Shown piece by piece: positions 1 to 25,449 of a DNA stretch of 64,000 nt; the first letter of the stretch is position 1; each line of letters begins with the position of its first letter. The notes beneath the pieces were generated by a model. It made no database searches, was not told the DNA's origin, and was given only the letters and a program-made list of their open reading frames with translations. Made by a program: the position numbers and the translations under genes. Source of the DNA: a virus (Duplodnaviria > Caudoviricetes); IMG/VR virus record IMGVR_UViG_3300032225_001595, positions 7,935-71,934 of that record. One strand, 5' to 3'.

Positions 1-2835
1 ATCAGGGCTGATTTTCATCAGGGTAGCCCTACATTGCATATTGAACGGTTTAAGAAAGCACTTTCTCGGGGTGAAGTTTCTAAGGATGTTGCTACATCGG
101 AAATTAATCGCGCTAAAGACGCTATTTCTAAAACTTCTATGTTTGTTAGGCAGACAAGTTTAAAGAGAAAAAACACAAAGGGGGATATGACCCCGGGTGT
201 TCCTAATGTTTCTTTGGACGCCACGCATGAAATTGTTCATCCTGATTATATTGGTAGTCCAGAAGATTCACTCACTGCAAAGAGGTCCGCGGCTAGGGCA
301 TCTACGTGGGGTCCTGCGGAGGACCCGGGCACTCCTCGTATTAAAGGTGAGGGTGCTGTTGTACGTTCTGGTAGACCGACTCCTGAGGGTGTTCTTACGC
401 GCCCGTTTAAAGCCCCGGCTCCTCCTTCAAAAGTTACTGGGTTTACTAATCAAACCACGTTTAATACAGCAAAACCTGCTGAGCCTGAGTCTGACGAGTA
501 TGGTAATCCGCGAGAATTAGAGGGGACTCGTGATATTGGTGGGGCGAGGTCTGTTGAATCTCAGCGCACCGATGTTTCTAATAAAGATCGTTGGAAAAAT
601 CTTACCCGTACCCCAGCACCTGTTGCACATTTGTTAAGTTTTGCGGGTGAGGCCGGGCGCACAAAAGTTTTATCATCTTTGCCTAAGGAAAACCCTGAAG
701 CACTGGTTGAGGGTGATCATTATCAAGATTCTATTGCCCACCACCTTTTGCATAAAAAGTTAACCCCAACACAGGTAATGGGTCTTAAAGAGGCGTTAAC
801 TAATATTCGTAGTGTTCATGGAAATTCCCTTCAAGTTCCTACTGTACGTAAAGGCAGAGTTGTAAGCTCTACTCAGTTGTGGTTTTGTGGGCATGAAGAT
901 TGTAATAAGTTAGCGGGGCACGATCCTGTTAAAGGGGAGCCTTCCCACGTTGGTAGTTCTTCCCGGGCATGGCAAGCGTACCCTGACAAGGATGATGATA
1001 CAACCTTAAAAGAGCCGTATACGACTTCTGGGTTTGATGCGATAGCTACTCGGCATAAGGAACTCAGCGACGAGCTTGCTTCTGCTACAACACAACTTCA
1101 GGGTCATCAACGGGCGGCAGCACGAATTCAAGGTCAAGCTAGGAATAGGGGAACCAGCCCAACAGATCACCCAGATTGGGAGTCCACGCAAGCTGGTATA
1201 GCTTCTTTGGCACCGCGTATTCCGGTGTTGGCGAAGCAGATTAGACAACACAAGTCGTGGATTAGCGCATATAACTTTAGGCAGCAGAATCAAGGTAATT
1301 ATTTTAATGAAGACGGTTCCGGTTTTGCTGCAGGTACGGAAGAAAAAGATGTTCCTGACCCTAAAGTTGGTAGAATTCTAGAACAGGAACGTCTTGAGCG
1401 CGAAAAAGCTGCGGCAGAAACTTTCCCTGAAACGCAAGAAGCTAATGTTAAAGAAGCTGAGAAAAGAATTTCCGAAGGTAACGCACCTAAGGGAACTCGA
1501 ATAGTTTACGGGTCTAGAACTGCTACGGGTAAGGCTAGGGTTGTTACCGATTTAGGTGGGGAGCCACAAAAACTTACGCTTCCAGTGTCTAAACAAGTTG
1601 GTGAGGCACGTATCGCATATAGTCCTTCTTCGTTACCTGCTGAAAGAACGCAGCGAGCTGAGGCGTCGGAAGCATCATCGACGTTACCTTCTTCTGATTA
1701 CACGGTTCAGGGCGGGCGAGTAAGACGTCGTCAGTGGGAAAAAATTTCGCCGACTGTGAGTTCAACTGGTGCTGGGGAAGCTGCTGAACAATTAGGTCAA
1801 TCATTTCGGGTGGTTGATGGTGCGCGTGTCCCTGCAGGGGGTTGGCGCCGCAATTTACTTGAACCTACTGAAAGTGTGGGTGGTATTTCAGTAGAACAGG
1901 CAAGAGCAGAAAATGCTGCGCGACCATTGTTTCCACCGCGTCGTGGAGTCGCAGCCACACCAGAAACTACTAATGATAGATCACCTGTGGTTGGGCGAGG
2001 ATCTTTTTACACTACTAGTGGTCTTACAGCCAAACCTTCCACGGAAGAATCACCAGAAAAACGTTTTCCTTATTTAGCTAACACCCCATCTGATGAACTA
2101 ACATCGGCTGGACGAAAGCGCAGTATTGACATTGCGAATGCTCGCCGTGATGTAGAAACGCATCAAGGCCATCTTGATTTACTGCGTGGCGGTTCCGTGG
2201 TTGATGCTTTAGCAGATAAACTTGGTAAAGCTAAAGAAGCACACGTTGGTCATCTTAAAACTTTAGAAGCTGCAAGACAAGAAGGCGATTTAAGAGAAAA
2301 TGCCGGATATCATGCAGCAAAAGAAACTGTTGCAAAAAGTCAATCAAGCATAGATGATCTCACTAGTAGGTTAGCTGACGCACGGTCGGGTAAATTGCCC
2401 GATAATGAGGTCACTATTCCTTCTCTTGATACTGCTGTTGCTATTCGTTCAAAAATGGGTGTTGGTGCGGATAAATACGCCGTAGGTTCAGCTATTAAAG
2501 TGGGTTCACCTGAACATAAAGCTGCTTTGGCGTATCACACGTCGGCACTTAAAAACGCTAAATCCGTATTAGCATCTCATGGTGTTGAGCAAACAGCACC
2601 AACTGGTGCGGGTGTTACCCCAAGAACATCTTCCTCGTTAACTGTAGGTACGTACGAACCAGCGACTCGGGCAGGGGTTGAAGCTCAGCGTCGTGGCGAG
2701 GATGAGCCTGAGGCACCTCATGATGTTGATGTCAGGTTGGAAAATACAGCTCGATCTTCGCTAACAGATCGCATTGACGAAGCCACTGAAATGCAAAGAA
2801 GAACTTCCGCGTTTGCTCTTGGGCGTGGCATGTAG
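1..2835 (+). CDS. Very large low-complexity protein, 5'-truncated by the window (>944 aa), with an embedded GreA-like coiled-coil segment
   Basis: Frame 1 is open from base 1 to TAG at 2833-2835 (the track start at 34 is an internal TTG). AARQEGDLRENAGYHAAKE at about 2269-2325 matches the GreA signature. Confidence 0.85.
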   Translation: MRADFHQGSPTLHIERFKKALSRGEVSKDVATSEINRAKDAISKTSMFVRQTSLKRKNTKGDMTPGVPNVSLDATHEIVHPDYIGSPEDSLTAKRSAARASTWGPAEDPGTPRIKGEGAVVRSGRPTPEGVLTRPFKAPAPPSKVTGFTNQTTFNTAKPAEPESDEYGNPRELEGTRDIGGARSVESQRTDVSNKDRWKNLTRTPAPVAHLLSFAGEAGRTKVLSSLPKENPEALVEGDHYQDSIAHHLLHKKLTPTQVMGLKEALTNIRSVHGNSLQVPTVRKGRVVSSTQLWFCGHEDCNKLAGHDPVKGEPSHVGSSSRAWQAYPDKDDDTTLKEPYTTSGFDAIATRHKELSDELASATTQLQGHQRAAARIQGQARNRGTSPTDHPDWESTQAGIASLAPRIPVLAKQIRQHKSWISAYNFRQQNQGNYFNEDGSGFAAGTEEKDVPDPKVGRILEQERLEREKAAAETFPETQEANVKEAEKRISEGNAPKGTRIVYGSRTATGKARVVTDLGGEPQKLTLPVSKQVGEARIAYSPSSLPAERTQRAEASEASSTLPSSDYTVQGGRVRRRQWEKISPTVSSTGAGEAAEQLGQSFRVVDGARVPAGGWRRNLLEPTESVGGISVEQARAENAARPLFPPRRGVAATPETTNDRSPVVGRGSFYTTSGLTAKPSTEESPEKRFPYLANTPSDELTSAGRKRSIDIANARRDVETHQGHLDLLRGGSVVDALADKLGKAKEAHVGHLKTLEAARQEGDLRENAGYHAAKETVAKSQSSIDDLTSRLADARSGKLPDNEVTIPSLDTAVAIRSKMGVGADKYAVGSAIKVGSPEHKAALAYHTSALKNAKSVLASHGVEQTAPTGAGVTPRTSSSLTVGTYEPATRAGVEAQRRGEDEPEAPHDVDVRLENTARSSLTDRIDEATEMQRRTSAFALGRGM

Positions 2836-2906
2836 GGCGTATGGGAATTGAACCCATCAGTGGCGGGATATAAGCCCGCTGCGGTCAACCAGCTCGCCCA
2901 CGCCCC
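2833..2906 (-). tRNA. tRNA-Ile, anticodon UAU (no encoded CCA)
   Basis: Minus strand: GGGGCGT GG GCG-AGCTGGTTGAC-CGC A GCGGG-CT TAT AT-CCCGC CACTG ATGGG-TTCAATT-CCCAT ACGCCCT A. Anticodon and T stems are perfect; G1:U72 wobble and G at position 8 are atypical. Confidence 0.75.
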
Positions 2907-2940: not shown

Positions 2941-3483
2941 ATGGCAATAGACCTTTCCAATTTATCTAAAACGTCCCCAGAAGATGGTCCACAAATTCGT
3001 TTATTGGTTTGTCGTACTTGTAAAACTATTGAAGAGCTTCCAGATTACGATGGCCGCCCTGCCGACGACCTTTTGCTTAATATCTCTATAGAGAAGCATC
3101 AGCGTCCTGAGCCTCATATTGGGTTGTTGTTTAAGTTTCCGCTTAAGTATTGGGCAGTTCCCAAAGTTAAGCAGGAAATTGTTAAGCAAATTCAAGGCGG
3201 TTCTGCTGGTCTTGATGTTTTTGGCACTAATTTTTATGACACTAAGATGACTTTTCATGACGATGCGATGACTTGTTGGGCGCAACATAACCGCCCTAAG
3301 GGTCAATGTCCAGACTATAAATCGGATAAGAAACAGTTAAAACCGGATACTGCAAAGGAACGGAAGGATGCTGGCCTTGATGGGCCCGGCAATTCCGGCC
3401 CTAAAGTTTACTTGTGCGATTTTTGTCCTGTTAAAATGTATAACCAGAAGAGAGCGTACAGCGAAAAGGGTCTATACAACTAA
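2941..3483 (+). CDS. Hypothetical protein with CxxC motifs (possible Zn-binding)
   Basis: 180-aa ORF with CRTC and CDFC; ATG sits 6 nt after a TAAACT -10-like hexamer. Confidence 0.75.
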   Translation: MAIDLSNLSKTSPEDGPQIRLLVCRTCKTIEELPDYDGRPADDLLLNISIEKHQRPEPHIGLLFKFPLKYWAVPKVKQEIVKQIQGGSAGLDVFGTNFYDTKMTFHDDAMTCWAQHNRPKGQCPDYKSDKKQLKPDTAKERKDAGLDGPGNSGPKVYLCDFCPVKMYNQKRAYSEKGLYN

Positions 3484-6044: not shown

Positions 6045-6494
6045 ATGTCAGTTCTGGTGTTCTTAGACGGTGTTTTGCGTAAGGACATCGGTTCACCCAT
6101 AGTTCAAGGTGTGGCGCTTTTCCGGTCATTGCAGGAGAAGCGCCGCACCGTTATTTTATGCAAAGAAAAAAGTGAAGTTGAAATATGGTTGCGGCAAAAT
6201 AACATTATAAAGGTGGATGATGTGGTGTCCCATGAGGATGCTAAGTCAACCACAGATGTTGATTTGGTAGAGTATTGCCGTTCCAGAGGGTATGTAGATA
6301 CCGTTGTTACAGCGGACCCTGATGTGGCAAAAGAGCTTTTAGAGCGGGGTATTACGTCACTTCTTTTTCTTAGTGCTAAATATATTCGCCCTGAGTTTAG
6401 GCCTGATGGACGAAAAGGGGTTAAAAGCTGGGAAGCTTTGCAGCATGAGGTTGACAGGCAGGAAGAGTTATACAGGGAAGATCCTCGAGTATGA
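6045..6494 (+). CDS. HAD-superfamily-like protein lacking the motif-I nucleophile
   Basis: N-terminal VLVFLDGVLR resembles hhhDxDGVL but has F at the first Asp position. Confidence 0.55.
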   Translation: MSVLVFLDGVLRKDIGSPIVQGVALFRSLQEKRRTVILCKEKSEVEIWLRQNNIIKVDDVVSHEDAKSTTDVDLVEYCRSRGYVDTVVTADPDVAKELLERGITSLLFLSAKYIRPEFRPDGRKGVKSWEALQHEVDRQEELYREDPRV

Positions 6495-7960
6495 ACATCA
6501 TTTATCTTGGTGCAGAGGTACCAAGCAATAGGAAAATCCTTGAGGCTTGCCATGTTAAAAATGTCGGAATTTCATTTTGGCGGTTAAAGCAACGGGGTTT
6601 GCCGAAAACTAAAGAATATCTTATTGAGAATTATTTCCCGGATTATATGAACGTATATGTGTACCCCGGCCTGCCGTATAACCAAGAATTGAACCCGGTG
6701 GAGTTAGAAGAATTTGCGGCAGATTACGAGCACTTTGTTGCCGTTAATATTGACCGCATTTTTGCGTTTACAGATTTCCATAACGTGTATTTACCCAAGG
6801 GTTTGCTTGGTCAACAACGTGCCATTGTGTTCGATGGGGAAGAAAAGTTTTGGCCCATTTATACCAAAGCGGTGAATTACGCCGAGTTGTTGGAGTTTGC
6901 TCAGAAGTATCCTCGTATAGCCGTGGATGGGGATCTTATTGATTCTGACCCGTCCATAGCAGCCAAAATAAAGGCTGTGAGTTCCCAGTTTGGTACCGAG
7001 TTTCATGCGTTGTCTTACGCCCGTCCAGACGCCCTTAGGGGGGCTTTATGGACCACTGTGAGCACCATGTCTTGGCTTTCCCCAATGATGAGGGGTGAAA
7101 CAATTGTATGGGACGGGAATCAAATTCTGCGGTATCCAGCACGGATGAAGGAGCAGGCTCGCCCAAGATATAAGGCGGTGTGCGAGCGGGCTGGGCTGGA
7201 TTTTGATAAGATATTAGAGGACGACAATGTTGAGGTTTGCCGTCTTGCTGTCTGGTCGTATGACCAGTTTGAGACGAGGTTTAACATGATTTCAGGGTCC
7301 GGTAATGACGACTTATTTAATAACTTGCCTGAATTAGGTATGCAAGTATCTACGGAAACACCCCATTCCGATATTGATAACAGGGGGTCTGGGGTGCGGA
7401 AACTTAAGCCAAGAAATCCCGCCGAAATGACCACACTTCCGGTGTTTGGGGTGCAGGTTGAGACCATTATTGAGAAGGATATTGATGGTAGGGATGTCAT
7501 TAAGGATGTCCCGGTTTTATCGTCAAATGCGACTTCATTACGCATGTGCAATACCTGTTTTGTAGCAGCAAATTGTCCCGCGTTTAAGCCCGATAACATG
7601 TGTGCATTTAACCTTCCGGTGGAGATTAAAACCAAGGATCAGCTTAAAGCTTTGTTGAACGCAATCATTGAAATGCAGGGCCAAAGAGTAGCATTTGCAA
7701 GGTTTTCCGAGGAATTAAACGGCGGTTACCCGGATCCTAATGTGGGTCAGGAAATGGATAGATTGTTTAAAATGTTGGAGTCCATTAAGAAGCTTGAGGA
7801 GTCTTCGTCGTTTGTGAAAATGACGTTGGAAAGTAAGGGTTCTTCTAGTGGGGTTTTGTCGTCTTTGTTTGGTGAGCGGGCGCAAGTTTTGCGTGAATTA
7901 CCTGATGGTGGGTACTCTGAAACGGTTACCGATGCCATCATTCAGCAGTCATTTGAGTAA
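6491..7960 (+). CDS. Hypothetical protein: degenerate TGT/DpdA-like TIM-barrel N-terminus plus C-terminal Cys cluster
   Basis: The order IIYLGAE / VGISFW / FHALSYARPDALR / TVSTMSW parallels phage TGT-like proteins (inference). CNTCFVAANCPAFKPDNMC near the C-terminus. The CDS itself is well supported. Confidence 0.6.
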   Translation: MNIIYLGAEVPSNRKILEACHVKNVGISFWRLKQRGLPKTKEYLIENYFPDYMNVYVYPGLPYNQELNPVELEEFAADYEHFVAVNIDRIFAFTDFHNVYLPKGLLGQQRAIVFDGEEKFWPIYTKAVNYAELLEFAQKYPRIAVDGDLIDSDPSIAAKIKAVSSQFGTEFHALSYARPDALRGALWTTVSTMSWLSPMMRGETIVWDGNQILRYPARMKEQARPRYKAVCERAGLDFDKILEDDNVEVCRLAVWSYDQFETRFNMISGSGNDDLFNNLPELGMQVSTETPHSDIDNRGSGVRKLKPRNPAEMTTLPVFGVQVETIIEKDIDGRDVIKDVPVLSSNATSLRMCNTCFVAANCPAFKPDNMCAFNLPVEIKTKDQLKALLNAIIEMQGQRVAFARFSEELNGGYPDPNVGQEMDRLFKMLESIKKLEESSSFVKMTLESKGSSSGVLSSLFGERAQVLRELPDGGYSETVTDAIIQQSFE

Positions 7961-8095
7961 TACAACCTATTAAATATAATCCCAGTTAGTCATTTGCAAT
8001 AGTACCCTCCAATTTGCCAAATTTCTGCGCGTAGTGTAAGTTCCTTTCCCTTACCTTAGAAGTAGGTAATTAGAATCTATTTTTCAGAAGAGGTA

Positions 8096-10129
8096 GTGGT
8101 GTTTTCTTTCAAATTATCAGATGATTTTGTTGTCGCATTTAACGGCAAGAAGGTCCCGTGGGGCTATAAAGATGCTGCAGGCAGTTCAGTAGGTGAGATC
8201 ACGTTTTTACGCACTTACAGTCGTATCAAAGCCGATGGAACAAAGGAAACGTGGGCAGAGGTATGCCGTCGAGTCATTGAGGGTATGTACAGTATTCAGA
8301 AGGATTGGTGCAAAACCAATCGTCTTCCTTGGAATGAGAAGAAGGCACAGTCATCAGCTAAAGAGGCGTTTGAGCGCCTTTTTGAGTTGAAGTGGACGCC
8401 ACCGGGTCGTGGTTTGTGGGTCATGGGTACCCAGTTGGTGAACGAAGATAAGAACAGCGCGGCGTTGCAAAATTGTTCTTTTGTTAGCACCGTTGAGATG
8501 ACCCGTTATAACCCTGCCAAGCCGTTTGCGTTTTTGATGGAAGCTTCCATGCTTGGTGTGGGTGTTGGTTTTGACACCAAGGGAGTGGACAAGGGGTTCA
8601 CAATTGGTAACCCAGTGAGAGATGATGAGTCCGGCATTGAGTTTGTGATTCCCGATACCCGTGAGGGGTGGGTTGAGTCAGTTTCAATGTTGATTAATTC
8701 CTATTTGAAACCGGAACCTCAGTTTGCCATAAAGTTTGATTATTCCCAAATCCGTCCAGCGGGTACCCCGATTAAAACTTTCGGTGGAACAGCCGCAGGT
8801 CATGAACCGTTGGAGAGGTTGCATAATGCAATTCGCGGTTTGTTTGACGGACGTAGTGGGGAAGAGTTAGATACTTGTGATATTGCCGATATTGGAAACC
8901 TTATTGGGGTTTGTGTGGTGTCGGGGAATGTTCGTCGTTCAGCCGAGTTGTTGATGGGTGGGTTGAATGATGATGTGTTCCTCAATTTGAAGAACCCCGA
9001 AAGGTTTCCTGAGCGCAATTCTTACGACCCGGCAGCCCCGGGTTGGGGGTGGATGTCCAACAACTCTGTTGAGGTGAAGGTCGGCGATGATTTGTCCGGC
9101 ATTGTGGACAACATTGCCATCAATGGTGAGCCGGGTGTTATTTGGATGGATGTGACCCGTAAGTACGGGCGTCTTTTAGATCAACCAAACAACAAGGATT
9201 GGCGAGCATCCGGGTACAACCCATGTGCTGAGCAGTCGTTGGAGTCGTTTGAGTGTTGCACTTTGGTGGAAACTTATTTGAACCGCCATGACAGCCTTGA
9301 GGATTACAAGCGCACATTAAAGTTTGCGTATTTGTACGCCAAGACCGTGACCCTGCTACCAACCCACTGGGAAGAAACAAATGCGATTATGCAACGCAAC
9401 CGCCGTATTGGTACGTCAATGTCGGGCATTGCTAATTTTAGTGACCGCCGTGGTAATTCCGTACTTCGGGAGTGGATGGACGCTGGTTACATTACTGTTA
9501 CAGAGTATGATCGCAGCTACTCCGAGTGGTTAGGTATTCGTGAGTCCATTAAGACCACAACTGTGAAGCCATCGGGAACCGTATCCATTCTTGCAGGCGA
9601 AAGCCCGGGCGTGCATTGGACCCCGGGTGGGGAATACTTTTTGCGGTCAATTCGTTTTGCTAAAGATGACCCGATGTTGCCGTTGTTTAAGCAATCGGGG
9701 TACCGGGTGGAGGATTCTGTTACGGATCCAGAGACAACAGCAGTTGTGTATTTCCCCATTAAGTCGGATGCGTTGCGTTCTGAGAAGGATGTTTCCATTT
9801 ATGAGAAGGCTTCGTTGGCGGCAATGGCACAGCGCCATTGGTCTGATAATTCCGTGTCAGTGACGGTGTCGTTTGATGCGGAAAAGGAAAAGAAGGATGT
9901 TGGTACGGTTCTTCACATGTTTGATGGCCAGTTGAAAACCATTTCCTTCTTGCCCATGGGTAACGCCACATATCCACAGATGCCGTACACGCAGGTAACT
10001 GAGGAGGAGTATCGCGCATATGGTGATACCCTGTTGCCTGTGGATTTGACAGACGTGTATGCTGGGTTGGCAGCGGATGCTATTGGTGAAAAGTTTTGCA
10101 CGACAGATGCGTGCGAAGTACCTAAATAA
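8096..10129 (+). CDS. nrdJ: Class II (B12-dependent) ribonucleotide reductase, monomeric RTPR type
   Basis: PPGRGLW, QNCSF, YNPCAEQSLESFECCTLVE, TTVKPSGTVS, C-terminal CTTDAC redox pair; GTG start after GAGG. Confidence 0.95.
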   Translation: MVFSFKLSDDFVVAFNGKKVPWGYKDAAGSSVGEITFLRTYSRIKADGTKETWAEVCRRVIEGMYSIQKDWCKTNRLPWNEKKAQSSAKEAFERLFELKWTPPGRGLWVMGTQLVNEDKNSAALQNCSFVSTVEMTRYNPAKPFAFLMEASMLGVGVGFDTKGVDKGFTIGNPVRDDESGIEFVIPDTREGWVESVSMLINSYLKPEPQFAIKFDYSQIRPAGTPIKTFGGTAAGHEPLERLHNAIRGLFDGRSGEELDTCDIADIGNLIGVCVVSGNVRRSAELLMGGLNDDVFLNLKNPERFPERNSYDPAAPGWGWMSNNSVEVKVGDDLSGIVDNIAINGEPGVIWMDVTRKYGRLLDQPNNKDWRASGYNPCAEQSLESFECCTLVETYLNRHDSLEDYKRTLKFAYLYAKTVTLLPTHWEETNAIMQRNRRIGTSMSGIANFSDRRGNSVLREWMDAGYITVTEYDRSYSEWLGIRESIKTTTVKPSGTVSILAGESPGVHWTPGGEYFLRSIRFAKDDPMLPLFKQSGYRVEDSVTDPETTAVVYFPIKSDALRSEKDVSIYEKASLAAMAQRHWSDNSVSVTVSFDAEKEKKDVGTVLHMFDGQLKTISFLPMGNATYPQMPYTQVTEEEYRAYGDTLLPVDLTDVYAGLAADAIGEKFCTTDACEVPK

Positions 10130-10139
10130 GGAGAACAAT

Positions 10140-10370
10140 ATGACGAACACATTTGCAGGTCTTCCATACAAGGAAGGGTTTGCCCGAGCTGCGTTTTTTA
10201 ACCGCGAACCTGAGTACAGGGAGATGACGCCCATGTATGAGAGGATGGCGGAAGCGGAGCGTGAGTATGTGAAGAATCTTACGGAGATGAACGCCCTTCC
10301 TTGGGAGTCGTGGAAGGAGCAGTGGGAGTCTAAAATCCGTAACGGTGAGCTAAGACCACATACTTTGTAA
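10140..10370 (+). CDS. Hypothetical protein
   Basis: AAGGAG then ATG at 10140; 76 aa. Confidence 0.65.
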   Translation: MTNTFAGLPYKEGFARAAFFNREPEYREMTPMYERMAEAEREYVKNLTEMNALPWESWKEQWESKIRNGELRPHTL

Positions 10371-10375
10371 GCAGT

Positions 10376-10413
10376 AAAAAACCCCCCGGCTAATCACCGG
10401 GGGGTTTCTTTTT
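10376..10413. terminator. Bidirectional intrinsic terminator between convergent operons
   Basis: AAAAA ACCCCCCGG-N7-CCGGGGGGT TTCTTTTT. Confidence 0.85.
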
Positions 10414-10416
10414 GGA

Positions 10417-11427
10417 TTAAATACTTAACCATTCGGGATGGTCAAGAGTCCATCGTACAGTACGTTCAAGGGACTCTTCAAGTGGGATTGGCGCTTTCCA
10501 TCCAGCTTGCGCCAAAAGGGTTCCATCTAAGGCATATCTGAGGTCATGCCCCGGTCGTGATGAGTGGAAGTCCACCAACTCGTACTTCAATTCTTTACCT
10601 GCCGCAGATGCAATCATTTGCGCCATTTCAAGGTTGTCCACCTCACGCTCACCAACAACATGAAAACGCTTAGGGCGATCAATAGTGTCTGAGTAGTTAT
10701 CTACATCAATATTGTTAAGAATGTACAGCAACGCATCAGCTTGGTTCCTCGCATGGAGGTAGAACCGACTGCCTACCTCACCTGAAGGAGATGCGTGGAT
10801 TTCCATCGTGTCACCCTTGAGTACTCGTGAAAGCGTTTTGGGCATGAATTTCTCAGGATCCTGCATTTCCCCAATAATATTCATAGTGTTAGTGATGATC
10901 AATGGCACCCCATAGGTACGCCAAGAGGAAAACGCAATACTTTCTTGGGCAGCTTTACTAGCAGCATAAGGATTGCTAGGAAGGTGAAGATCTTGCCACT
11001 CAACGTGAGCATGTCCAGCAGGGGCTGGCCCATAAACCTCATCCGTGGAGATATGGATGAACTTCTCGATATCAGAGTTTTTAGCCCAGTCCATCATGTT
11101 GCAAATAAGTTGAACATTGTTAACAATGAATGGCGTTGGCTCTTCAATAGATCTATCAACATGTGATTGACTAGCTACATTGAGAACGTAGTCAATTTTG
11201 CCAATTTCTTTGGCGCTGACAGGTGTAATAGGTGCGGTAAGGTCATGCTGAAACACTTTTACCCGGCTAGTGTCAAATCCATCAACGGATAGACGAATGC
11301 GGTCATACATACCTTTGTGTTGGTAGGTAGCTGGGCATACCACTTGCCAATCAGTGTTAGCAAGAATATGACGTAATACGTGACTCCCAACGAAGCCACT
11401 AGCGCCAGTCAACAATACTCGTTTCAT
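10417..11427 (-). CDS. rfbB: dTDP-glucose 4,6-dehydratase-like extended SDR
   Basis: TGASGFVG, ASQSHVDRSI, STDEVYG, YAASKAA (YxxxK), RPGHDLRYALD. Confidence 0.9.
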   Translation of the reverse strand: MKRVLLTGASGFVGSHVLRHILANTDWQVVCPATYQHKGMYDRIRLSVDGFDTSRVKVFQHDLTAPITPVSAKEIGKIDYVLNVASQSHVDRSIEEPTPFIVNNVQLICNMMDWAKNSDIEKFIHISTDEVYGPAPAGHAHVEWQDLHLPSNPYAASKAAQESIAFSSWRTYGVPLIITNTMNIIGEMQDPEKFMPKTLSRVLKGDTMEIHASPSGEVGSRFYLHARNQADALLYILNNIDVDNYSDTIDRPKRFHVVGEREVDNLEMAQMIASAAGKELKYELVDFHSSRPGHDLRYALDGTLLAQAGWKAPIPLEESLERTVRWTLDHPEWLSI

Positions 11428-11955
11428 TTACGCATCCTTAACTGCTTGAAGGTGCCATACTAAATGGCATTCCGATTTCGTATCTTTAGATTGCCCTAAT
11501 AGAACAAACCTGCCATAAAACCCATAATCCCGAGCGATGTGTACCGCCGTGTGGGGTGTGCTTTCAGATGGCTCTATAAAATAGGCAATAGTTTGAGAGG
11601 TGATGAAATTAACATGCTGAGGGTCTTGAAATGCCTCAAGGTAAGGTACGTGGGGTGTGGAAAACCAAGTTTCACCGTTTGGTTTTAACACTCGCCATAC
11701 ATCATTTAATATATCTATAAATGGTTGCGTGCGTTGTCTTCCGTTATACAAAATTCGTGGAACGTGTTCTAAAAAGTCAAAGCCGGTCACGTAATCAAAG
11801 TAGTTGTCTTCAAATGGAATAGGATCTAAAACAAGGTCAGCTACTTTAATATTAGGGTTGCCAAAATCAACAATGTCCACCCCATAAATTTCATCCGCGT
11901 TGAACGGGTTTTTAGGTTGACTACCGCAACCTAAATCCAATGTTTTAGTTGTCAT
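11428..11955 (-). CDS. Class I SAM-dependent methyltransferase (type 11-like)
   Basis: LDLGCG, IYGVDI, DFLEHVP, WRVLKPNG; TAATG coupling with the upstream gene. Confidence 0.85.
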   Translation of the reverse strand: MTTKTLDLGCGSQPKNPFNADEIYGVDIVDFGNPNIKVADLVLDPIPFEDNYFDYVTGFDFLEHVPRILYNGRQRTQPFIDILNDVWRVLKPNGETWFSTPHVPYLEAFQDPQHVNFITSQTIAYFIEPSESTPHTAVHIARDYGFYGRFVLLGQSKDTKSECHLVWHLQAVKDA

Positions 11956-13409
11956 TAGGCAATCCATTCTTTGAGAGTTTCGAGGTTTTCTTTAATATAC
12001 TCCGGGAACGAGTGGTCAATGGGTCGTATTGCCGTCATACCATCATCGAATAAACTCTTGCCAGTGTCAATGCACATTTGGATGTAGTCAAGGTCCTTGA
12101 CCTCGTCACCGTATTCTTGGTGTGAAAACGCCTCAAGTTTCTCGCGGATCTTTTTGTTTTCCTTTAAGAACGAGAAATGCCATCCGGCATTGGCAATCGC
12201 GCTTTTGGTGGAGTTGAACCTAGTCGTGCACTGGTTGACAAAGTCCTTGTAGGTAGTGATTTTTGCGTGGTACCACTTATGCTCGAACTGCAAGTTGAAC
12301 TTGTAATAGTAGAACAAGTATTCAAGCGCGGTAGTTTTTACGTCTTTGACGTAGGTCAAGTATTCAATAACGGTGCGCCGGGGAATCTCATCCACATCGC
12401 CAATGATCAAGATGTCATCAGGATTGAGACCAAGGGGGGCGAGAGTATCGCGGTTGATGTGGTTCATCTGGTACTGCTCGCGTTCCCACGGGTTCTCAGT
12501 TTCAAACAACTCCGGGGTGATGATAGTCACTTTACTGGCGTATTTGGGATAACGTTCCTGCAAACAGTCTTTAAGCCAAAGATCCTTGGGGATGCCGGTG
12601 AACGTTTCCTTGCTTTCTACAATGACAAAGTGATCGACAAAATCGTTGAGCTCGCAAAACCTAACATCAAGCAAAAGGAACTCGTCGTAGAACGGAAAAC
12701 AATCAACCACTTTGCGCCCTTCAATAGGCTTGTCGCCTTTAAGTTTGCTGACATCAATAGCAAAACGCGATTGCATGTAGCGTGTGAATTTGACGTGGTC
12801 AGATTTCAGCAAATTGCTAATCCGATGGCTGATTTTGTCTTCCTTTGCTTTACCCACAATTGGGTGGTTATGCTCCATGATCACATCAGGCAAATACATG
12901 CATGTGCCTAACGTCTGGGCAATAGTCATCCAGTAGTTGTCGAAGAAGTTGTGCTCGACAGCAGGGCATCCGTAGAAACCCACGGCTTTGATCATGCTGC
13001 TCTTGATACAGGGGTGAGTAGCAAGCTTGCCGTTGTGCACTAGGTCGTTGCCGTAGACCATACCAACTGGCACATCTTCCAAGAAGTCAATGAACTTTGA
13101 TTCCCACGGAGTTTGCAGCACAATATCGTGAGCAAGGAATTGAATGTACTCATGCTTGTCCGCAATATCTAACGCGTGGTAATTGAGTTTTTCCATGAGT
13201 GTGATGTCGCTGGGAACACTTAACCATTTCACATCACTAAAGGACTCCAATAATGTAGGGTGTCCTATTGTTTCGTCATCATCTGTAATGACATAAATAT
13301 CAGACAGTCCTTCAGTTTGTTTCTTCCATGAAGAAAGTGCTTCAACAAGTTGTGCTGTACGACCCGTACCACCGTCACGGAAAGGAAGAATGACACCGAT
13401 GGGCTTCAC
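11955..13409 (-). CDS. Two-domain glycosyltransferase: GT2-like N-terminus fused to GT17 (GnT-III/MGAT3-like) C-terminus
   Basis: N-terminal VILPFRDG and VYGNDL; C-terminal VVDCFPFYDEFLLLDVRFCELNDFVDHFVIVES, IGDVDEIP, AGWHFSF, AFSHQE. Confidence 0.8.
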   Translation of the reverse strand: MKPIGVILPFRDGGTGRTAQLVEALSSWKKQTEGLSDIYVITDDDETIGHPTLLESFSDVKWLSVPSDITLMEKLNYHALDIADKHEYIQFLAHDIVLQTPWESKFIDFLEDVPVGMVYGNDLVHNGKLATHPCIKSSMIKAVGFYGCPAVEHNFFDNYWMTIAQTLGTCMYLPDVIMEHNHPIVGKAKEDKISHRISNLLKSDHVKFTRYMQSRFAIDVSKLKGDKPIEGRKVVDCFPFYDEFLLLDVRFCELNDFVDHFVIVESKETFTGIPKDLWLKDCLQERYPKYASKVTIITPELFETENPWEREQYQMNHINRDTLAPLGLNPDDILIIGDVDEIPRRTVIEYLTYVKDVKTTALEYLFYYYKFNLQFEHKWYHAKITTYKDFVNQCTTRFNSTKSAIANAGWHFSFLKENKKIREKLEAFSHQEYGDEVKDLDYIQMCIDTGKSLFDDGMTAIRPIDHSFPEYIKENLETLKEWIA

Positions 13410-14164
13410 AGGTAACCTCCTAAATCAACACCGTAAATGCGCTTAATAAAGTTTACATCTTGTTCAGCCATTACTTTAAACTGCGTAAATAATGACTTTT
13501 TTACAAAAGGATAACCAAGTGTCAATAGTCGTTCCCACGCGTAAATGTACTGGTTAGGGTCGTCTACTAAATCAATGATGCGTTGACTAACAATATTTTT
13601 ATACGAATACATCACTTTTAGTTTGTTTCCCTGTTGATTAATCAATTCATTTAACGGAAACCCTACTTCATACTTCATTACCAAATTAAATTTATCTAAA
13701 GATTGCACATCGGTTACGCTTGGACATAGCGCTTCTTGAAGAACATGGTTTTCTAGCGCGTAACTTGAAAAAGCTCGCATGTAGGACTGTAAGTGGTACT
13801 GACCATTGGCGATGTTATCAGTAAGCCCCCAAATATCGTAATCATAGGCTTCAATGCTTTCAAAAACAGGATCCAATGATTGGATAGGACCAATGCAGCT
13901 ATCGTTCATGAGAACCAAAAGATTACTATCAAATATGTCAGGGTTGTCTGACAGAACCCTAGACCACGCACCAATATCCCATCCACGATTAATACGACTT
14001 AGCAATTCCACGGCAGGGAACTGATCGTAGGGAAATTCGCTTGGGTTAGTTGTTGATACAATAACCCTGTAATTGCGTCGTATAAACGCGTTGATTTGTG
14101 ATATCACCCACGGATTAAATTCTCCGTGGTGGGCGTAAACCAATACTTTATCATTTTGTTTCAT
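13406..14164 (-). CDS. Rhamnan synthesis protein F (RgpF)-like
   Basis: NRGWDIGAW, LMNDSCIGP, DIWGLT, HLQSY, YEVG motifs. Confidence 0.75.
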   Translation of the reverse strand: MKQNDKVLVYAHHGEFNPWVISQINAFIRRNYRVIVSTTNPSEFPYDQFPAVELLSRINRGWDIGAWSRVLSDNPDIFDSNLLVLMNDSCIGPIQSLDPVFESIEAYDYDIWGLTDNIANGQYHLQSYMRAFSSYALENHVLQEALCPSVTDVQSLDKFNLVMKYEVGFPLNELINQQGNKLKVMYSYKNIVSQRIIDLVDDPNQYIYAWERLLTLGYPFVKKSLFTQFKVMAEQDVNFIKRIYGVDLGGYL

Positions 14165-19526: not shown

Positions 19527-20252
19527 TTATTTCTTACTTATACTGAATAAGACATCTTTTCTACCTTGGGGGCATAAATCGCACCGTTGGCAGGCTGAGC
19601 CTTGGTCTGATACTAGTGGCAGCACTTTGTTATTCTCGGGACAGAATGTGCCAGATTTACCTAGTGTGTCTAACATTTCGCTTTTACCTGCCTCAAAGGT
19701 GAGTGCTAGGTAGGCTAACAGTAAGTTAGGCTGTTTATTCCGCAGTTCTAGTGCTGTTTCTCTGTTGTCACTATCTGTGCTGAAATACAGGGCTAGGTTA
19801 CTGATATTGCTAAGGATAGGTACAGCGAACGCTGACCTTGTGTAGACCCAGAATTGTGTGTCAGGGTGGGCTTGGATAACTCTCTTCCATGCCTCAGTGT
19901 AGGCAACTGAGTAGAAGTCTCCGTCCCAGTGAATACGGAACTTTTTGGGCGCTGAATATCTGTCGCATTCTCGCTCGAAGTCGACGATGATGGCTGCCAA
20001 TAGATTACCTATCTTATCCACATCATCTCCACAGGCTTGTAATGTTTCCCAGTTGTGTAGCAGTAGGGCTCGCACTGTGGGGCGTATGTTGGCTAGTTTA
20101 TTGGCGTAACAGATTTTGGTGCAGATAGACGTTGCACCGGGGCATGAGTACTGATTCCCAGCAGGTAGCCCGAAGGAGTTCGCTATCAGGGGCTTATTAC
20201 TAGGGGTCAGTATGTTAGCCACCTTGGTGACTGATGAGCGTTTCAGGTACAT
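19527..20252 (-). CDS. Gene product 88-like protein (putative Fe-S, radical-SAM-like)
   Basis: CPGATSICTKICYA, FRIHWDGDFYS, FWVYTRS, CQRCDLC. Confidence 0.75.
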   Translation of the reverse strand: MYLKRSSVTKVANILTPSNKPLIANSFGLPAGNQYSCPGATSICTKICYANKLANIRPTVRALLLHNWETLQACGDDVDKIGNLLAAIIVDFERECDRYSAPKKFRIHWDGDFYSVAYTEAWKRVIQAHPDTQFWVYTRSAFAVPILSNISNLALYFSTDSDNRETALELRNKQPNLLLAYLALTFEAGKSEMLDTLGKSGTFCPENNKVLPLVSDQGSACQRCDLCPQGRKDVLFSISKK

Positions 20253-22401: not shown

Positions 22402-23424
22402 TCAGACTGTAATCAGAGTGCTGACAACATCAGCAATCTTTTTGCGCTGAGCGGTGGCAAGAGTGTCAAACCCTGATGCCTTGACCAGTCGGTTCTCACC
22501 CTTCTTGTCACCACGAGTTGAGGTGTAGTAGTCCTCGAACTCTGTCAGGGTGTTGAGCACACCCCATGCTGTGCCGCGTGCATTGTCCAGCGTTGGGCTG
22601 AACCGGTACAGCGTCCAGATGGTGCCGACAGCGTTACCCCAACGTGTCTTGGCTGATGGGCTGGCGTCCTCATCTGGGGTTGGGAACAGCACATTGAGCA
22701 CTTTCTGCATGTCTGCATCTGTGGCAGGTGTGCTGTACAGTTTCTGAGCGAACTCATCCATCTGTGTGAGGTACTGCGTGGACAGGTTGAGTGCTTTACG
22801 CACGCCCTTGGCTCGTTCGTCAGCGGTCGCTGTGTGCTTGATGCTGAAGATGTTCTCCGCACCACCGATTGCCCAGTTGACTGTGTTCTGGCATACACCA
22901 CGCACATTGGATGCGAACAACTTGGTGCTTGACGAACCGTCGAACGAGGTCACACCGAACAGGTAGCGGTTGATCTTGTCCTCTTGACCGTCAGGTCCAA
23001 GCAGCATCCCACCGGGTAGGCGTAGGGTGATGGCTGCACGCAGACCGTTGTTCAGAAGCATGGCGGACTCCCAACCATAGCCGGACTCATAGTCCACAGC
23101 ATAGTCAAGCGTCTCACCAAGTGTCTGCACTTGGAAGGGCGTGTAACGCTCGGTCAAGCCGCGACCAAGAATCTTGCGCTTGCCACCTTCGAACAGTGGT
23201 TCACGCACGGTCTTGAAGTATTGACGGCTGGACTCTTCATCATCCAGTAGCACCTCAGGCTCAACCACAACATGGTGGTCAGCGAACCCGGCGTGGGTGA
23301 GGAACTCTTGGAGCGTGAGCTCCTCATCCTCACCAGCGATGTATTTAGCCAGACCGTGCCACGCAGGGTCGCTGCGTAGTGCAATCATTGGCTGACCGTT
23401 GACGAACTCGATACCGTGTGGCAT
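22402..23424 (-). CDS. DUF932 (TIGR03299-like) phage/plasmid protein
   Basis: PAWHGL, RYTPFQ, SFDGSSS, VCQNT, HTAT, GTAWGVLNTLTEFEDY. Confidence 0.85.
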   Translation of the reverse strand: MPHGIEFVNGQPMIALRSDPAWHGLAKYIAGEDEELTLQEFLTHAGFADHHVVVEPEVLLDDEESSRQYFKTVREPLFEGGKRKILGRGLTERYTPFQVQTLGETLDYAVDYESGYGWESAMLLNNGLRAAITLRLPGGMLLGPDGQEDKINRYLFGVTSFDGSSSTKLFASNVRGVCQNTVNWAIGGAENIFSIKHTATADERAKGVRKALNLSTQYLTQMDEFAQKLYSTPATDADMQKVLNVLFPTPDEDASPSAKTRWGNAVGTIWTLYRFSPTLDNARGTAWGVLNTLTEFEDYYTSTRGDKKGENRLVKASGFDTLATAQRKKIADVVSTLITV

Positions 23425-24579: not shown

Positions 24580-24870
24580 TCAGGCACGTACGTAGTTCAT
24601 CCATTCGTCTCGGCGCTGTGCCGGTAGGCATGGGTACTCTGTCTGGCACTCAGGGCAGTACCCATCTCCGTCGGCAGTGTGCTGGCACTCCCAGCATGGG
24701 CAGCCCATGTTTGTACCTGCGGTCATCAGGTGCAGCCCCACAATCCACCGCAGGCGTTCCAGTGTGATGCCGTATTCAGCAGCAAGTGCTTGACGACGCG
24801 CATCATCATCATCGCCAATCCTCATCTCACGTTCGCGGTTGATGAGGATTGATCGCTCTACTATGTTCAT
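24580..24870 (-). CDS. Sigma-region-4.2-like HTH plus Cys clusters (diverged paralog of 25216-25449)
   Basis: LAAEYGITLERLRW...CPCWEC...CPEC. Confidence 0.55.
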   Translation of the reverse strand: MNIVERSILINREREMRIGDDDDARRQALAAEYGITLERLRWIVGLHLMTAGTNMGCPCWECQHTADGDGYCPECQTEYPCLPAQRRDEWMNYVRA

Positions 24871-24931
24871 AATCACCTCCTTAGTAGATGCACTGCAAGG
24901 CAGGGACTATTGCCCCTGCCCTGCCGAACTG

Positions 24932-25215: not shown

Positions 25216-25449
25216 TCAGGCTTGGAGTTCCTCTATCTCCTTGCCGCTGGCAATCTCGACCTTGCGGTCTCTCTCGCACAGAGCGCACACGCATTTCGCG
25301 CTCGTATTGTGCATGTGCTCAATCATGCGCACACGCTCGGCTGTGATGCCGTACTCTTCTGCGAGGTCTCGCAGAGTCTGTGGTGGCTGACCGGTCAGGC
25401 CAAGCCGTTTGCGCAGAAGGTCTGCGCGTTGTTCGGGTGTCATTCCCAT
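25216..25449 (-). CDS. Stand-alone sigma-70 region 4 (SigA-like) HTH protein with C-terminal CxCxxC
   Basis: RKRLGLTGQPPQTLRDLAEEYGITAERVRMIE versus the group-1 sigma consensus RxRFGLxxGxPxTLxEIGxxxGVTRERIRQIE. Confidence 0.8.
   Translation of the reverse strand: MGMTPEQRADLLRKRLGLTGQPPQTLRDLAEEYGITAERVRMIEHMHNTSAKCVCALCERDRKVEIASGKEIEELQA

Follow-up and report, generated by a model that had tools for sequence, protein, structure and literature searches.

Introduction

Phages are known to reach the RNA polymerase of their hosts through sigma mimics, covalent modification, jaw and flap binders, and the DksA-like proteins TraR and Orf73. In GenBank phages, PHROGs and IMG/VR, no described phage protein with a catalytic finger of the Gre type was found, in agreement with an earlier note on the DNA analysed here, which knew of no phage protein with the architecture reported below. 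In Gre factors, the N-terminal domain holds the cleavage determinants and the C-terminal domain is responsible for RNA polymerase binding, as stated in a passage of PMC7104715 that cites Koulich 1998, and full GreA activity requires both domains (PMC7104715). A Gre-like finger need not stimulate cleavage: where PMC7104715 treats Gfh1 and Rv3788, these are given as proteins that inhibit RNA polymerase via the secondary channel. In mycobacterial HelD, the Gre-like arm mainly anchors HelD on RNA polymerase (PMC7749165).

The giant open reading frame

The window is a 64,000-nucleotide stretch from the genome of an uncultured tailed phage (Caudoviricetes; IMG/VR record IMGVR_UViG_3300032225_001595, positions 7,935 to 71,934). 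It opens within a long ORF, whose missing 5' end was recovered from the whole 71,934-base virus record. The full gene (G000:C1:7650-10769, also L002:7650-10769) encodes a protein of 1,039 aa, P0003, which fits the length of more than 940 aa given in the earlier note. An AAGGA Shine-Dalgarno-like motif lies immediately upstream of its ATG. The parts of the ORF are as follows, in window coordinates.

1..2835, + strand: giant ORF, truncated at its 5' end in the window
1027..1293, + strand: second confidently predicted helical hairpin, aa 438-526 (pLDDT 72-91)
1696..1986, + strand: constant block, aa 661-757 (86% amino acid and 92% nucleotide identity to P0005)
1987..2580, + strand: insert of ~200 aa relative to P0005, aa 758-955 (from sequence comparison with P0005 and fold prediction)
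2581..2835, + strand: C-terminal tail, aa 956-1039 (39% identity to P0005; ends AFA-GRG[ML])

The ORF is a real coding gene, since its GC3 (31%) differs from the overall value (47%) and dN/dS is 0.47 in the comparison with P0004, a relative with 91% identity. Hydrophobic residues make up 12-34% of every 50-residue segment of P0003, and pLDDT is below 50 for 774 of its 1,039 residues in the fold prediction. The ORF had been called low-complexity, and is better described as hydrophilic and mostly predicted to be disordered.

A hypervariable locus

By comparison with related phages, the P0003 gene is an expanded allele at a hypervariable locus, whose products are hydrophilic and largely predicted to be disordered. 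In a group of actinobacterial myoviruses, this locus sits between recombination/repair and nucleotide-metabolism genes, and one of its neighbours, of 180 aa, is conserved. The P0003 gene is co-oriented with the recombination/nucleotide-metabolism genes and tightly packed against small ORFs directly upstream, and ~35 kb separate it from the genes for head and tail (terminase, portal, capsid). The positional orthologue P0005 (1,112 aa), from a phage with 95%-identical flanks, does not carry the Gre finger described below. The two giant alleles have in common an N-terminal motif (L-x-DDP-[ND]-F), the constant block and the C-terminal tail; their interior is variable, and the constant block is its sole shared stretch. 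Four residues of the hairpin at aa 438-526 (W515, I516, N520 and R522) are also found in P0005 as invariant columns. In the insert of P0003, a variable linker and a leading helix precede the Gre finger, which is followed by a non-Gre tail with one helix (aa 932-954).

In 51 more distant loci the position is taken by unrelated hydrophilic ORFs (76 to >647 aa), none with the finger. Overall, the alleles range from 76 to 1,112 aa and are unalignable, and no Pfam family was found in 29 of them. The locus clearly exemplifies to what extreme degree the alleles of a disordered protein can turn over in phages with 95% identity otherwise. As the finger is absent from P0005 in a phage with such similar flanks, it is an accessory and not part of the protein core, and its absence from P0005 and from the 51 distant loci indicates that it is dispensable for whatever the locus does.

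The phage terminase is 55% identical to that of Streptomyces phage BRock, and its ribonucleotide reductase (RNR) is 74% identical to that of a lake Actinomycetia phage and 56% identical to those of mycobacteriophages. The scanned ORFs, which are a part of all ORFs, yielded no phage RNA polymerase, so that dependence on the host polymerase is likely.

Homology to the N-terminal finger of GreA

Within the insert, three overlapping features concern the finger.

2191..2385, + strand: predicted antiparallel coiled-coil hairpin (fold predictions from alignments that include or omit GreA rows)
2200..2424, + strand: stretch with demonstrable GreA homology, aa 829-903 (Pfam, NCBIfam, phmmer and an actinobacterial GreA profile)
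2287..2298, + strand: codons for D858-L-R-E861, counterparts of E. coli GreA D41/E44 (translation and GreA alignments)

Translation of positions 2194-2390 in frame 1 confirms the 65-residue peptide containing the string quoted in the earlier note. The Pfam family PF03449 (GreA_GreB_N) matches the whole of P0003 with 40.9 bits over profile positions 27-70 of 71 (E 2.5e-10; curated cut-off 24.5), far above chance, and the proposed homology to the GreA N-terminal coiled coil is thereby upheld. Against the finger segment alone the same family scores 47.7 bits. The NCBIfam model TIGR01462 (greA) matches P0003 with E 2.1e-10, E. coli GreA (1grj) was matched at E 5e-5 in a phmmer search against PDB, and a profile built in this analysis from 68 actinobacterial GreA sequences gives 51.0 bits (positions 18-92 of 166, aa 831-903). 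PF03449 is the only Pfam family of P0003 at E <= 1, and its NCBIfam matches are all GreA models confined to the finger, bar one at chance level (E 0.22). The homologous stretch extends across both helices and the tip between them and takes in the interdomain linker.

The tip of the finger reads EGDLRENAGYHAA and includes D858 (codon 2287-2289) and E861 (codon 2296-2298), both in GDLREN. These align to the tip pair of E. coli GreA, and the two carboxylates are thus kept, as had been claimed. The residues N, Y, H, A and A that flank them are exactly as in cleavage-active GreA. Identity to the GreA consensus is 84% at the tip (aa 853-871) as against 26% in helix 1, 32% in helix 2 and 38% in the linker, and falls to 16% in the region equivalent to the C-terminal domain. 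Of the highly conserved columns, 15 of 16 survive at the tip and 14 of 41 elsewhere in the finger (Fisher p = 6e-5).

An antiparallel hairpin, the fold that the earlier note had put forward for checking, is predicted whether or not GreA sequences are present in the alignment (pLDDT 86-98 with GreA rows, 62-90 without any). It consists of a helix (aa 826-855), a tip loop (aa 856-862, EGDLREN) and a second helix (aa 863-890). It superposes on Gfh1 and GreA N-terminal domains with an rmsd of 1.1-2.3 A over 58-68 residues, and its length equals that of the Gfh1/GreA N-terminal domain (model 31-99 versus Gfh1 8-75, rmsd 2.3 A). The fold was also considered as proof of Gre identity and set aside: GreA and Gfh1 take the top Foldseek ranks but with E 0.02-0.6, and VIA-align gives Z 9-10 for many unrelated hairpins as well. 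Similarity between hairpins is generic, therefore the fold alone is not diagnostic and the case for Gre rests on sequence.

Absence of the C-terminal Gre domain

No match to PF01272 was found in P0003 at E <= 1 with Pfam, and a GreA profile restricted to the C-terminal domain scores 1.0 bit, a value that 246 of 2,000 shuffled sequences equal or exceed. In the fold predictions the finger is followed by low-confidence coil and one helix, with no beta domain. Sequence profile and fold prediction are thus in accord with the earlier statement that an intact C-terminal GreA domain is missing. A remnant of this domain was considered on the basis of a 'V-x-SP' and other matches in a MAFFT alignment, and was ruled out, as 12% of shuffles reach the 1.0 bit and no beta domain is predicted. 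The stretch of aa ~806-955 is about one whole GreA in length, which is no more than suggestive of whole-gene capture.

Origin of the finger

The cellular sequences nearest to the finger are actinobacterial GreAs, with best identities of 43-52% over ~60 residues. An exact run of 18 residues around the tip is shared with GreA of Actinomyces radicidentis, and the resemblance to actinobacterial GreA stated in the earlier note therefore holds. The best 80 matches in a scan of genome contigs are all from Actinomycetota. In a second donor sample of 401 Actinomycetota genomes, 155 have a match; this tally rests in part on eight unpublished genomes (G050, G270, G241, G020, G122, G090, G003 and G228). 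Sequence affinities place both the phage and the donor of the finger with the Actinomycetota.

The GC3 of the finger is 19%, with no compositional trace of a high-GC donor left. A recent donor was ruled out on this ground and by an identity of at most ~50% to any cellular GreA. For the same two reasons (identity and GC3), the capture is judged to be old, with long residence in the phage.

Distribution of the finger

The only other carrier of the finger found is P0004, in which the tip is invariant. With six substitutions only, the hairpin dN/dS between P0003 and P0004 rests on too few changes to be informative. The survey of homologues that the earlier note had called for is divided in its outcome, with the finger kept and its tip unchanged in P0004, and the finger absent from P0005.

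In an exhaustive phmmer search among 1.84 billion representatives, all matches other than P0004 and P0005 are of 106-313 aa and align only to aa ~808-967; GreA_GreB_N was present in all nine of those sampled. A search for the finger in longer proteins returned P0003 and P0004 only. With tblastn, the segment and the whole protein found just bacterial greA in contaminated or mislabelled entries among 50,697 phage records. Searches of PHROGs gave nothing useful for the finger, none of the 54 pattern matches in an IMG/VR scan for the tip was confirmed, and the ESM Atlas gave no usable match.

A 147-aa metagenomic GreA-like ORF (P0006) has an N-terminal extension that resembles aa 806-827 of P0003. 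It lies on a contig of 1,079 bases, where it adjoins a divergent gene, and the extension is probably a miscalled start.

Possible functions of the finger

The reading to which we give nearly an even chance is that the captured Gre finger is under selection as a hook or effector for the secondary channel, by which P0003 would be recruited to the host enzyme and cleavage of backtracked RNA stimulated. The ~200-aa insert of P0003 and P0004 carries an old, diverged N-terminal finger of actinobacterial-type GreA, with two predicted antiparallel helices of ~30 residues, the EGDLREN loop and the interdomain linker, and without the docking domain. This finger may extend through the secondary channel of the host polymerase as far as the active site, and would tether the giant protein to the enzyme. 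With its catalytic pair D858/E861 intact, it could stimulate cleavage of backtracked RNA as an anti-arrest factor, and P0003 would owe its docking affinity to other regions and not to a Gre C-terminal domain. The tip has hardly changed a letter, whereas the helices, the linker and the downstream region have drifted. This uneven retention is the evidence that bears on function, and we infer from it that selection still keeps the finger for what Gre tips do; RNA polymerase binding, cleavage stimulation and the timing of finger action we likewise infer only. The reading is also favoured by the sequence homology, a predicted hairpin of Gre length, the invariant tip in P0004, the actinobacterial affinity of the phage and of the closest GreAs, and the precedent of HelD, whose Gre-like coil works with no Gre C-terminal domain (PMC7749165). 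Counting against this reading are the missing docking domain, the absence of the finger from P0005 and from the 51 distant loci, and the fact that there are two known carriers only, 91% identical to each other. In addition, both helices are strongly diverged, so that surface residues contacting the channel may have been lost.

The anatomy of the finger would equally fit a blocker that occupies the secondary channel, either to silence or re-tune the host polymerase or to keep host GreA out, with the giant protein providing affinity. Inhibition of host transcription is common among phages, Gfh1 structures are among the top fold matches, and absence from sister alleles would suit an accessory weapon for host takeover. 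Inhibitory Gre homologues that bind the channel do exist, Rv3788 being an example cited in a passage of PMC7104715, and the Gre-like coil of HelD dismantles the active site (PMC7749165). A pure plug, however, has no obvious need of both carboxylates together with the flanking N, Y, H, A and A of cleavage-active GreA, and as none of the scanned ORFs is a phage polymerase, wholesale inhibition of the host enzyme would also harm the phage; we hold a blocker to be somewhat unlikely. The finger could also be a relic or a re-used structural coiled coil, that is, a greA fragment captured by a gene tolerant of insertions, where it would now function just as spacer or oligomerisation element and leave RNA polymerase unaffected. 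The locus accepts nearly any hydrophilic sequence, as its unalignable alleles of very different length, 29 of them without a Pfam family, attest; a sister allele, P0005, does without the finger; the Gre C-terminal domain is gone; and the gene is under relaxed overall constraint (dN/dS 0.47). Neutral decay should nevertheless erode the tip like the helices, which is not the pattern of 15/16 versus 14/41 retained columns, and nothing in the structure of a spacer would make a loop its best-preserved element. The codon composition and the limited identity to cellular GreA, which point to long residence in the phage, also speak against a relic, and this explanation is considered unlikely.

According to another proposal, raised in the earlier note, P0003 would be a virion component that is ejected along with the DNA, and its finger would meet host RNA polymerase as early as entry. 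Large size and partial disorder are frequent among ejected phage proteins, and the arrangement of an N-terminal motif, a constant block and a tail around a variable interior loosely recalls the internal proteins of T4, which carry a conserved targeting peptide. The gene, however, is placed among recombination, repair and nucleotide-metabolism genes, co-oriented with them and far from the head and tail genes. It has no match to a PHROG structural family, and nothing ties P0003 to the virion. The proposal thus finds no footing here and is regarded as very improbable. An extension of the tethered Gre finger, which we consider quite improbable, is that the hypervariable locus acts as a scaffold, its long disordered proteins taking up hooks for host machines. 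Here the hook would be a catalytically competent Gre finger without its docking domain, tethered near the recombination/replication machinery of the phage, and host polymerase that has backtracked on phage DNA would be cleared or restarted by it.

Should the finger prove active with no docking domain, it would demonstrate that backtracking and arrest of host RNA polymerase are under phage control. An active finger would also be a natural minimal, separately anchored Gre finger for dissecting the action of the tip in actinobacterial RNA polymerase, an enzyme that is a drug target in mycobacteria.

Comparison with known systems

With GreA and GreB (PF03449 + PF01272; 1grj; mycobacterial GreA), P0003 shares a homologous finger of equal length, the GDLxEN tip with both carboxylates followed by G/A-Y-H-A-A, and a recognisable interdomain linker. 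It differs in that the C-terminal docking domain is missing and the finger is located at aa 826-903 of a mostly disordered protein of 1,039 residues, whereas GreA is a stand-alone protein of ~160 aa, to whose consensus the P0003 helices are merely 26-32% identical. P0003 as a whole also falls far below the curated cut-offs of the Gre families (TIGR01462, 40.9 versus 139 bits; NF0012xx equivalogs, 12-39 versus 145-234 bits). In the long GreA fusions NF011309 (906-aa model) and NF004969 (718-aa 'transcript cleavage factor/unknown domain fusion'), the Gre module is likewise near the C-terminal end, and the rest of the long protein has no assigned function. The weak matches of P0003 to these models are confined to the finger (21 bits against a cut-off of 714, and 19 against 697), with no similarity beyond it. 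The proteins of both families are presumably cellular, with a complete Gre module including the C-terminal domain.

Gfh1 of Thermus and Rv3788 of M. tuberculosis have the same finger fold, Gfh1 being among the best structural matches. They are small stand-alone proteins that have kept the C-terminal domain, whereas the finger of P0003 has the canonical GreA tip. TraR and phage lambda Orf73 are mobile-element proteins that also act on host RNA polymerase via the secondary channel, but they are proteobacterial, with a DksA/TraR zinc-finger coiled coil of ~73 aa (PMC9239242); no dksA/traR-type family (C4 zinc finger, coiled coil with a DxxDxA tip) was found in P0003 with Pfam at E <= 1. The polyvalent proteins (Iyer et al. 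2017, PMC5512222) have several enzymatic or anti-defence domains, are encoded with packaging or transfer genes and are delivered with the DNA, whereas P0003 has one recognisable module only and its gene lies ~35 kb from terminase and portal. A Gre domain is not listed among the domains of polyvalent proteins (PMC5512222).

HelD of Bacillus subtilis and Mycobacterium smegmatis, a large NTPase that recycles RNA polymerase, has a Gre-like arm for the secondary channel (PMC7749165). It is a cellular protein with SF1 helicase-like NTPase domains and a main-channel arm, while P0003 is viral and mostly disordered, and an SF1 helicase-like NTPase core was not found in it with Pfam (E <= 1) or NCBIfam. 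The likeness lies in the arrangement, in which a Gre-like coil is part of a large protein that has no Gre C-terminal domain and owes its affinity to other regions (PMC7749165), as P0003 would.

A giant ORF with a genuine coding signal

With upstream DNA from the 71,934-base IMG/VR record, of which the window is bases 7935-71934, the giant ORF (P0003) has a complete length of 1,039 amino acids and starts at an ATG with AAGGA ahead of it, immediately past the termination codon of the small gene that precedes it. The protein is hydrophilic along its whole length, 774 of its 1,039 residues have pLDDT <50 with AlphaFold2, and neither a PHROG family (PHROGs search) nor a look-alike in the ESM Atlas was found. 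Despite this character, P0003 is a genuine gene, as dN/dS is 0.47 in comparison with P0004, a 91% identical relative, and third-position GC is strongly skewed. Features in and around the ORF are as follows.

Window 1027-1293 (+), amino acids 438-526: second long helical hairpin, pLDDT 72-91, the sole confidently predicted part of P0003 other than the Gre-like finger
Window 2832-2906 (-): tRNA-Ile, anticodon TAT (ARAGORN), antisense relative to the neighbouring genes; its span overlaps the stop codon of the giant ORF
Window 2941-3483 (+): 180-amino acid protein containing Cys motifs, assigned to no family and conserved on 51 viral contigs (47-82% identity)
Window 6491-7960: TGT/DpdA-like gene

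The Gre-like finger

The earlier note had described the tip of the GreA coiled coil within this ORF. The peptide it quoted is indeed encoded by window 2194-2390 in frame 1, and the D and E of GDLREN, its tip acidic pair, are codons 2287-2289 and 2296-2298. The HMMER search it proposed, with GreA_GreB_N on the full-length protein, gives 40.9 bits (cut-off 24.5). This is the sole Pfam family in P0003 at E <= 1, with profile positions 27-70 of 71 matched. NCBIfam GreA models match the same stretch, and E. coli GreA is matched by phmmer against PDB sequences. A profile of 68 actinobacterial GreAs scores 51 bits over amino acids 831-903, a stretch that takes in the tip, helix 2, the interdomain linker and the greater part of helix 1. 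When 1.84 billion representative proteins were searched exhaustively with phmmer, two of the matches were full-length relatives; the remaining 38 are proteins of 106-313 amino acids, with alignment confined to amino acids ~808-967 of P0003. GreA_GreB_N is present in all nine of these that were scanned, accompanied in some by the C-terminal GreA_GreB domain. The finger is homologous to GreA; its resemblance is no chance one.

The best cellular-type match is P0006, a GreA-like ORF of 147 amino acids on a 1,079-base JGI contig (L088, 612-1055). It has an N-terminal extension like amino acids 806-827 of P0003, and its C-terminus diverges from GreA. Either a wrongly called start or chimeric assembly may explain this ORF.

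With GreA rows in the alignment, AlphaFold2 predicts helices at amino acids 826-855 and 863-890 (pLDDT 86-98), connected by the EGDLREN loop. The hairpin is predicted again from three phage proteins alone, without GreA rows (pLDDT 62-90). Over its full length it can be overlaid on the N-terminal domain of Gfh1/GreA (rmsd 2.3 A, model 31-99 on Gfh1 8-75), and a second structural comparison gives rmsd 1.1-1.9 A over 58-60 columns. Many unrelated hairpins match the predicted finger equally well, and therefore the fold by itself is no proof of Gre identity.

The GreA C-terminal domain is absent from P0003, in line with the earlier note, which saw no intact one. PF01272 is not found at E <= 1 with Pfam, a C-terminal-domain-only GreA profile scores 1.0 bit (reached by 12% of shuffles), and past the finger both fold predictions give low-confidence coil and one helix (amino acids 932-954).

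Conservation, donor and age of capture

The tip and the remainder of the finger differ in conservation (Fisher p = 6e-5).

Conservation of P0003 regions relative to GreA (identity to GreA consensus; highly conserved columns kept)
Helix 1: 26%; 5/17
Tip, amino acids 853-871: 84%; 15/16
Helix 2: 32%; 5/13
Linker: 38%; 4/11
C-terminal-domain-equivalent: 16%; 4/30

The GreAs nearest to the finger are actinobacterial; P0003 and Actinomyces radicidentis GreA are identical over 18 consecutive residues around the tip. The actinobacterial tip sequence given in the earlier note was essentially correct. Actinomycetota account for 80/80 of the best genome matches to the finger, in a scan that is biased because the tip octapeptide formed part of its seed. 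The unbiased phmmer search of 1.84 billion representatives agrees with this result. The best identity of the finger to any cellular GreA is ~50%, and GC3 of the segment is 19%, versus ~71% GC in matched streptomycete greA stretches. Thus, the capture of the Gre finger is an old event.

A hypervariable locus

UvsX-like, Holliday-junction resolvase, Cas4-like exonuclease, RuvC-like and metallophosphoesterase genes lie upstream of P0003, and glycosyltransferase, TGT/DpdA-like and ribonucleotide reductase genes downstream. L003, a metagenomic contig of 16 kb, matches the flanks at 95-96% DNA identity and carries at the equivalent position P0005, of 1,112 amino acids. P0005 is alignable to P0003 in three pieces only: a short N-terminal motif, a 257-base block (amino acids 661-757, 92% DNA identity), and the C-terminal tail with the final ~37 bases. 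P0005 has no Gre segment; the finger sits in a ~200-amino acid insert relative to it, bounded precisely by the constant block on one side and the tail on the other. Save for the 257-base block and the last ~37 bases, the cassette of small upstream ORF plus giant ORF is swapped whole (L002, the whole virus record, 7475-10733 versus L003 502-4294; roughly window 1-2800 with a further 460 bases upstream). Such a swap between phages with nearly identical flanks makes this locus a case of extreme allelic turnover.

A further 51 syntenic IMG/VR loci (L089-L139) were retrieved via the conserved 180-amino acid downstream gene, a useful marker for this phage group, and ~600 bases upstream of each match were examined. 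In all 51, the marker is immediately preceded by a hydrophilic ORF that differs in length (76 to >647 amino acids) and is unrelated and unalignable in sequence. A Gre-like segment in any frame was found in 0/51, as was resemblance to P0003 or P0005, and 29 of the alleles have no Pfam family. Given the swapped P0005 cassette and these dissimilar alleles, the giant ORF is an expanded allele of a hypervariable locus for disordered proteins. Within it the Gre finger is an accessory, confined to the P0003/P0004 allele.

Many of the 51 alleles end in Lys/Ala/Pro-rich tails, reminiscent of actinobacterial DNA-binding tails.

Phage affinities and other genes

The virus, a myovirus, encodes terminase, portal, major capsid protein and sheath at 37-57 kb. 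The terminase shares 55% identity with its counterpart in Streptomyces phage BRock. For the class II ribonucleotide reductase, identity is 74% with the enzyme of Actinomycetia phage DSL-LC01 (from Dishui Lake) and 56% with mycobacteriophage enzymes. Other genes are as follows.

Window 10417-14164 (-), 19527-20252 (-), 22402-23424 (-): sugar-modification operon (epimerase/dehydratase, methyltransferase, GT17-like, RgpF-like), mycobacteriophage Gp88-family protein and DUF932 protein
Window 24580-24876 (-) and 25216-25449 (-): small ORFs of 98 and 77 amino acids, with a sigma-70 region 4.2-like segment by eye and Cys clusters

Together with the TGT/DpdA-like gene, the first group suggests DNA or cell-surface glycan modification. 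The 77-amino acid ORF has a weak PHROG match to an RNA polymerase sigma factor family (E 0.028), and the sigma-like ORFs are possibly a second RNA polymerase-directed function in the same phage.

Possible functions of the finger

In Gre factors, cleavage determinants lie in the N-terminal coiled coil and RNA polymerase binding comes from the C-terminal domain, as summarized in a passage of PMC7104715 citing Koulich et al. 1998; D43N, at the mycobacterial equivalent of the tip aspartate, eliminates function (PMC7104715). HelD is anchored elsewhere and inserts a Gre-like arm into the secondary channel; in mycobacteria this arm does no more than assist anchoring (PMC7749165). A finger without a docking domain can likewise function if another part of the protein anchors it. 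The second predicted hairpin, ending in a W-I-x3-N-x-R motif common to P0003 and P0005, could be such an anchor.

The sole evidence bearing on function is the tip, near-perfectly kept while the segment has otherwise drifted, which speaks for continued contact between the loop and the region of the RNA polymerase active site. We tentatively favor a reading, itself somewhat short of probable, in which the tethered finger would bring P0003 to host RNA polymerase and its intact carboxylate pair would stimulate cleavage of backtracked RNA. The same anatomy is compatible with a blocker or competitor, which we consider unlikely. That the finger is a relic with no RNA polymerase function would fit its dispensability and the tolerant locus, but is at odds with tip retention and seems less likely still. 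Packaging of P0003 in the virion and its ejection, raised by the earlier note, is not directly supported, the gene being far from the virion module, and is the least probable of these.

Relationship to known systems

P0003 shares a homologous finger with the GreA/GreB family, but lacks the C-terminal domain and the whole-protein likeness of its members, and does not belong to that family. The match to long cellular GreA fusions (NCBIfam NF011309, NF004969) is confined to the finger, with scores far under the cut-offs. TraR/lambda Orf73, the proteins by which phages and plasmids are known to bind the secondary channel (PMC9239242), differ from P0003. No phage protein of this architecture is found in GenBank phages, PHROGs or IMG/VR. 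Present in two near-identical sequences only and absent from sister alleles, the finger is real, rare and mechanistically suggestive; P0003 would work most like a Gre finger transplanted to a different scaffold, the arrangement seen in HelD.
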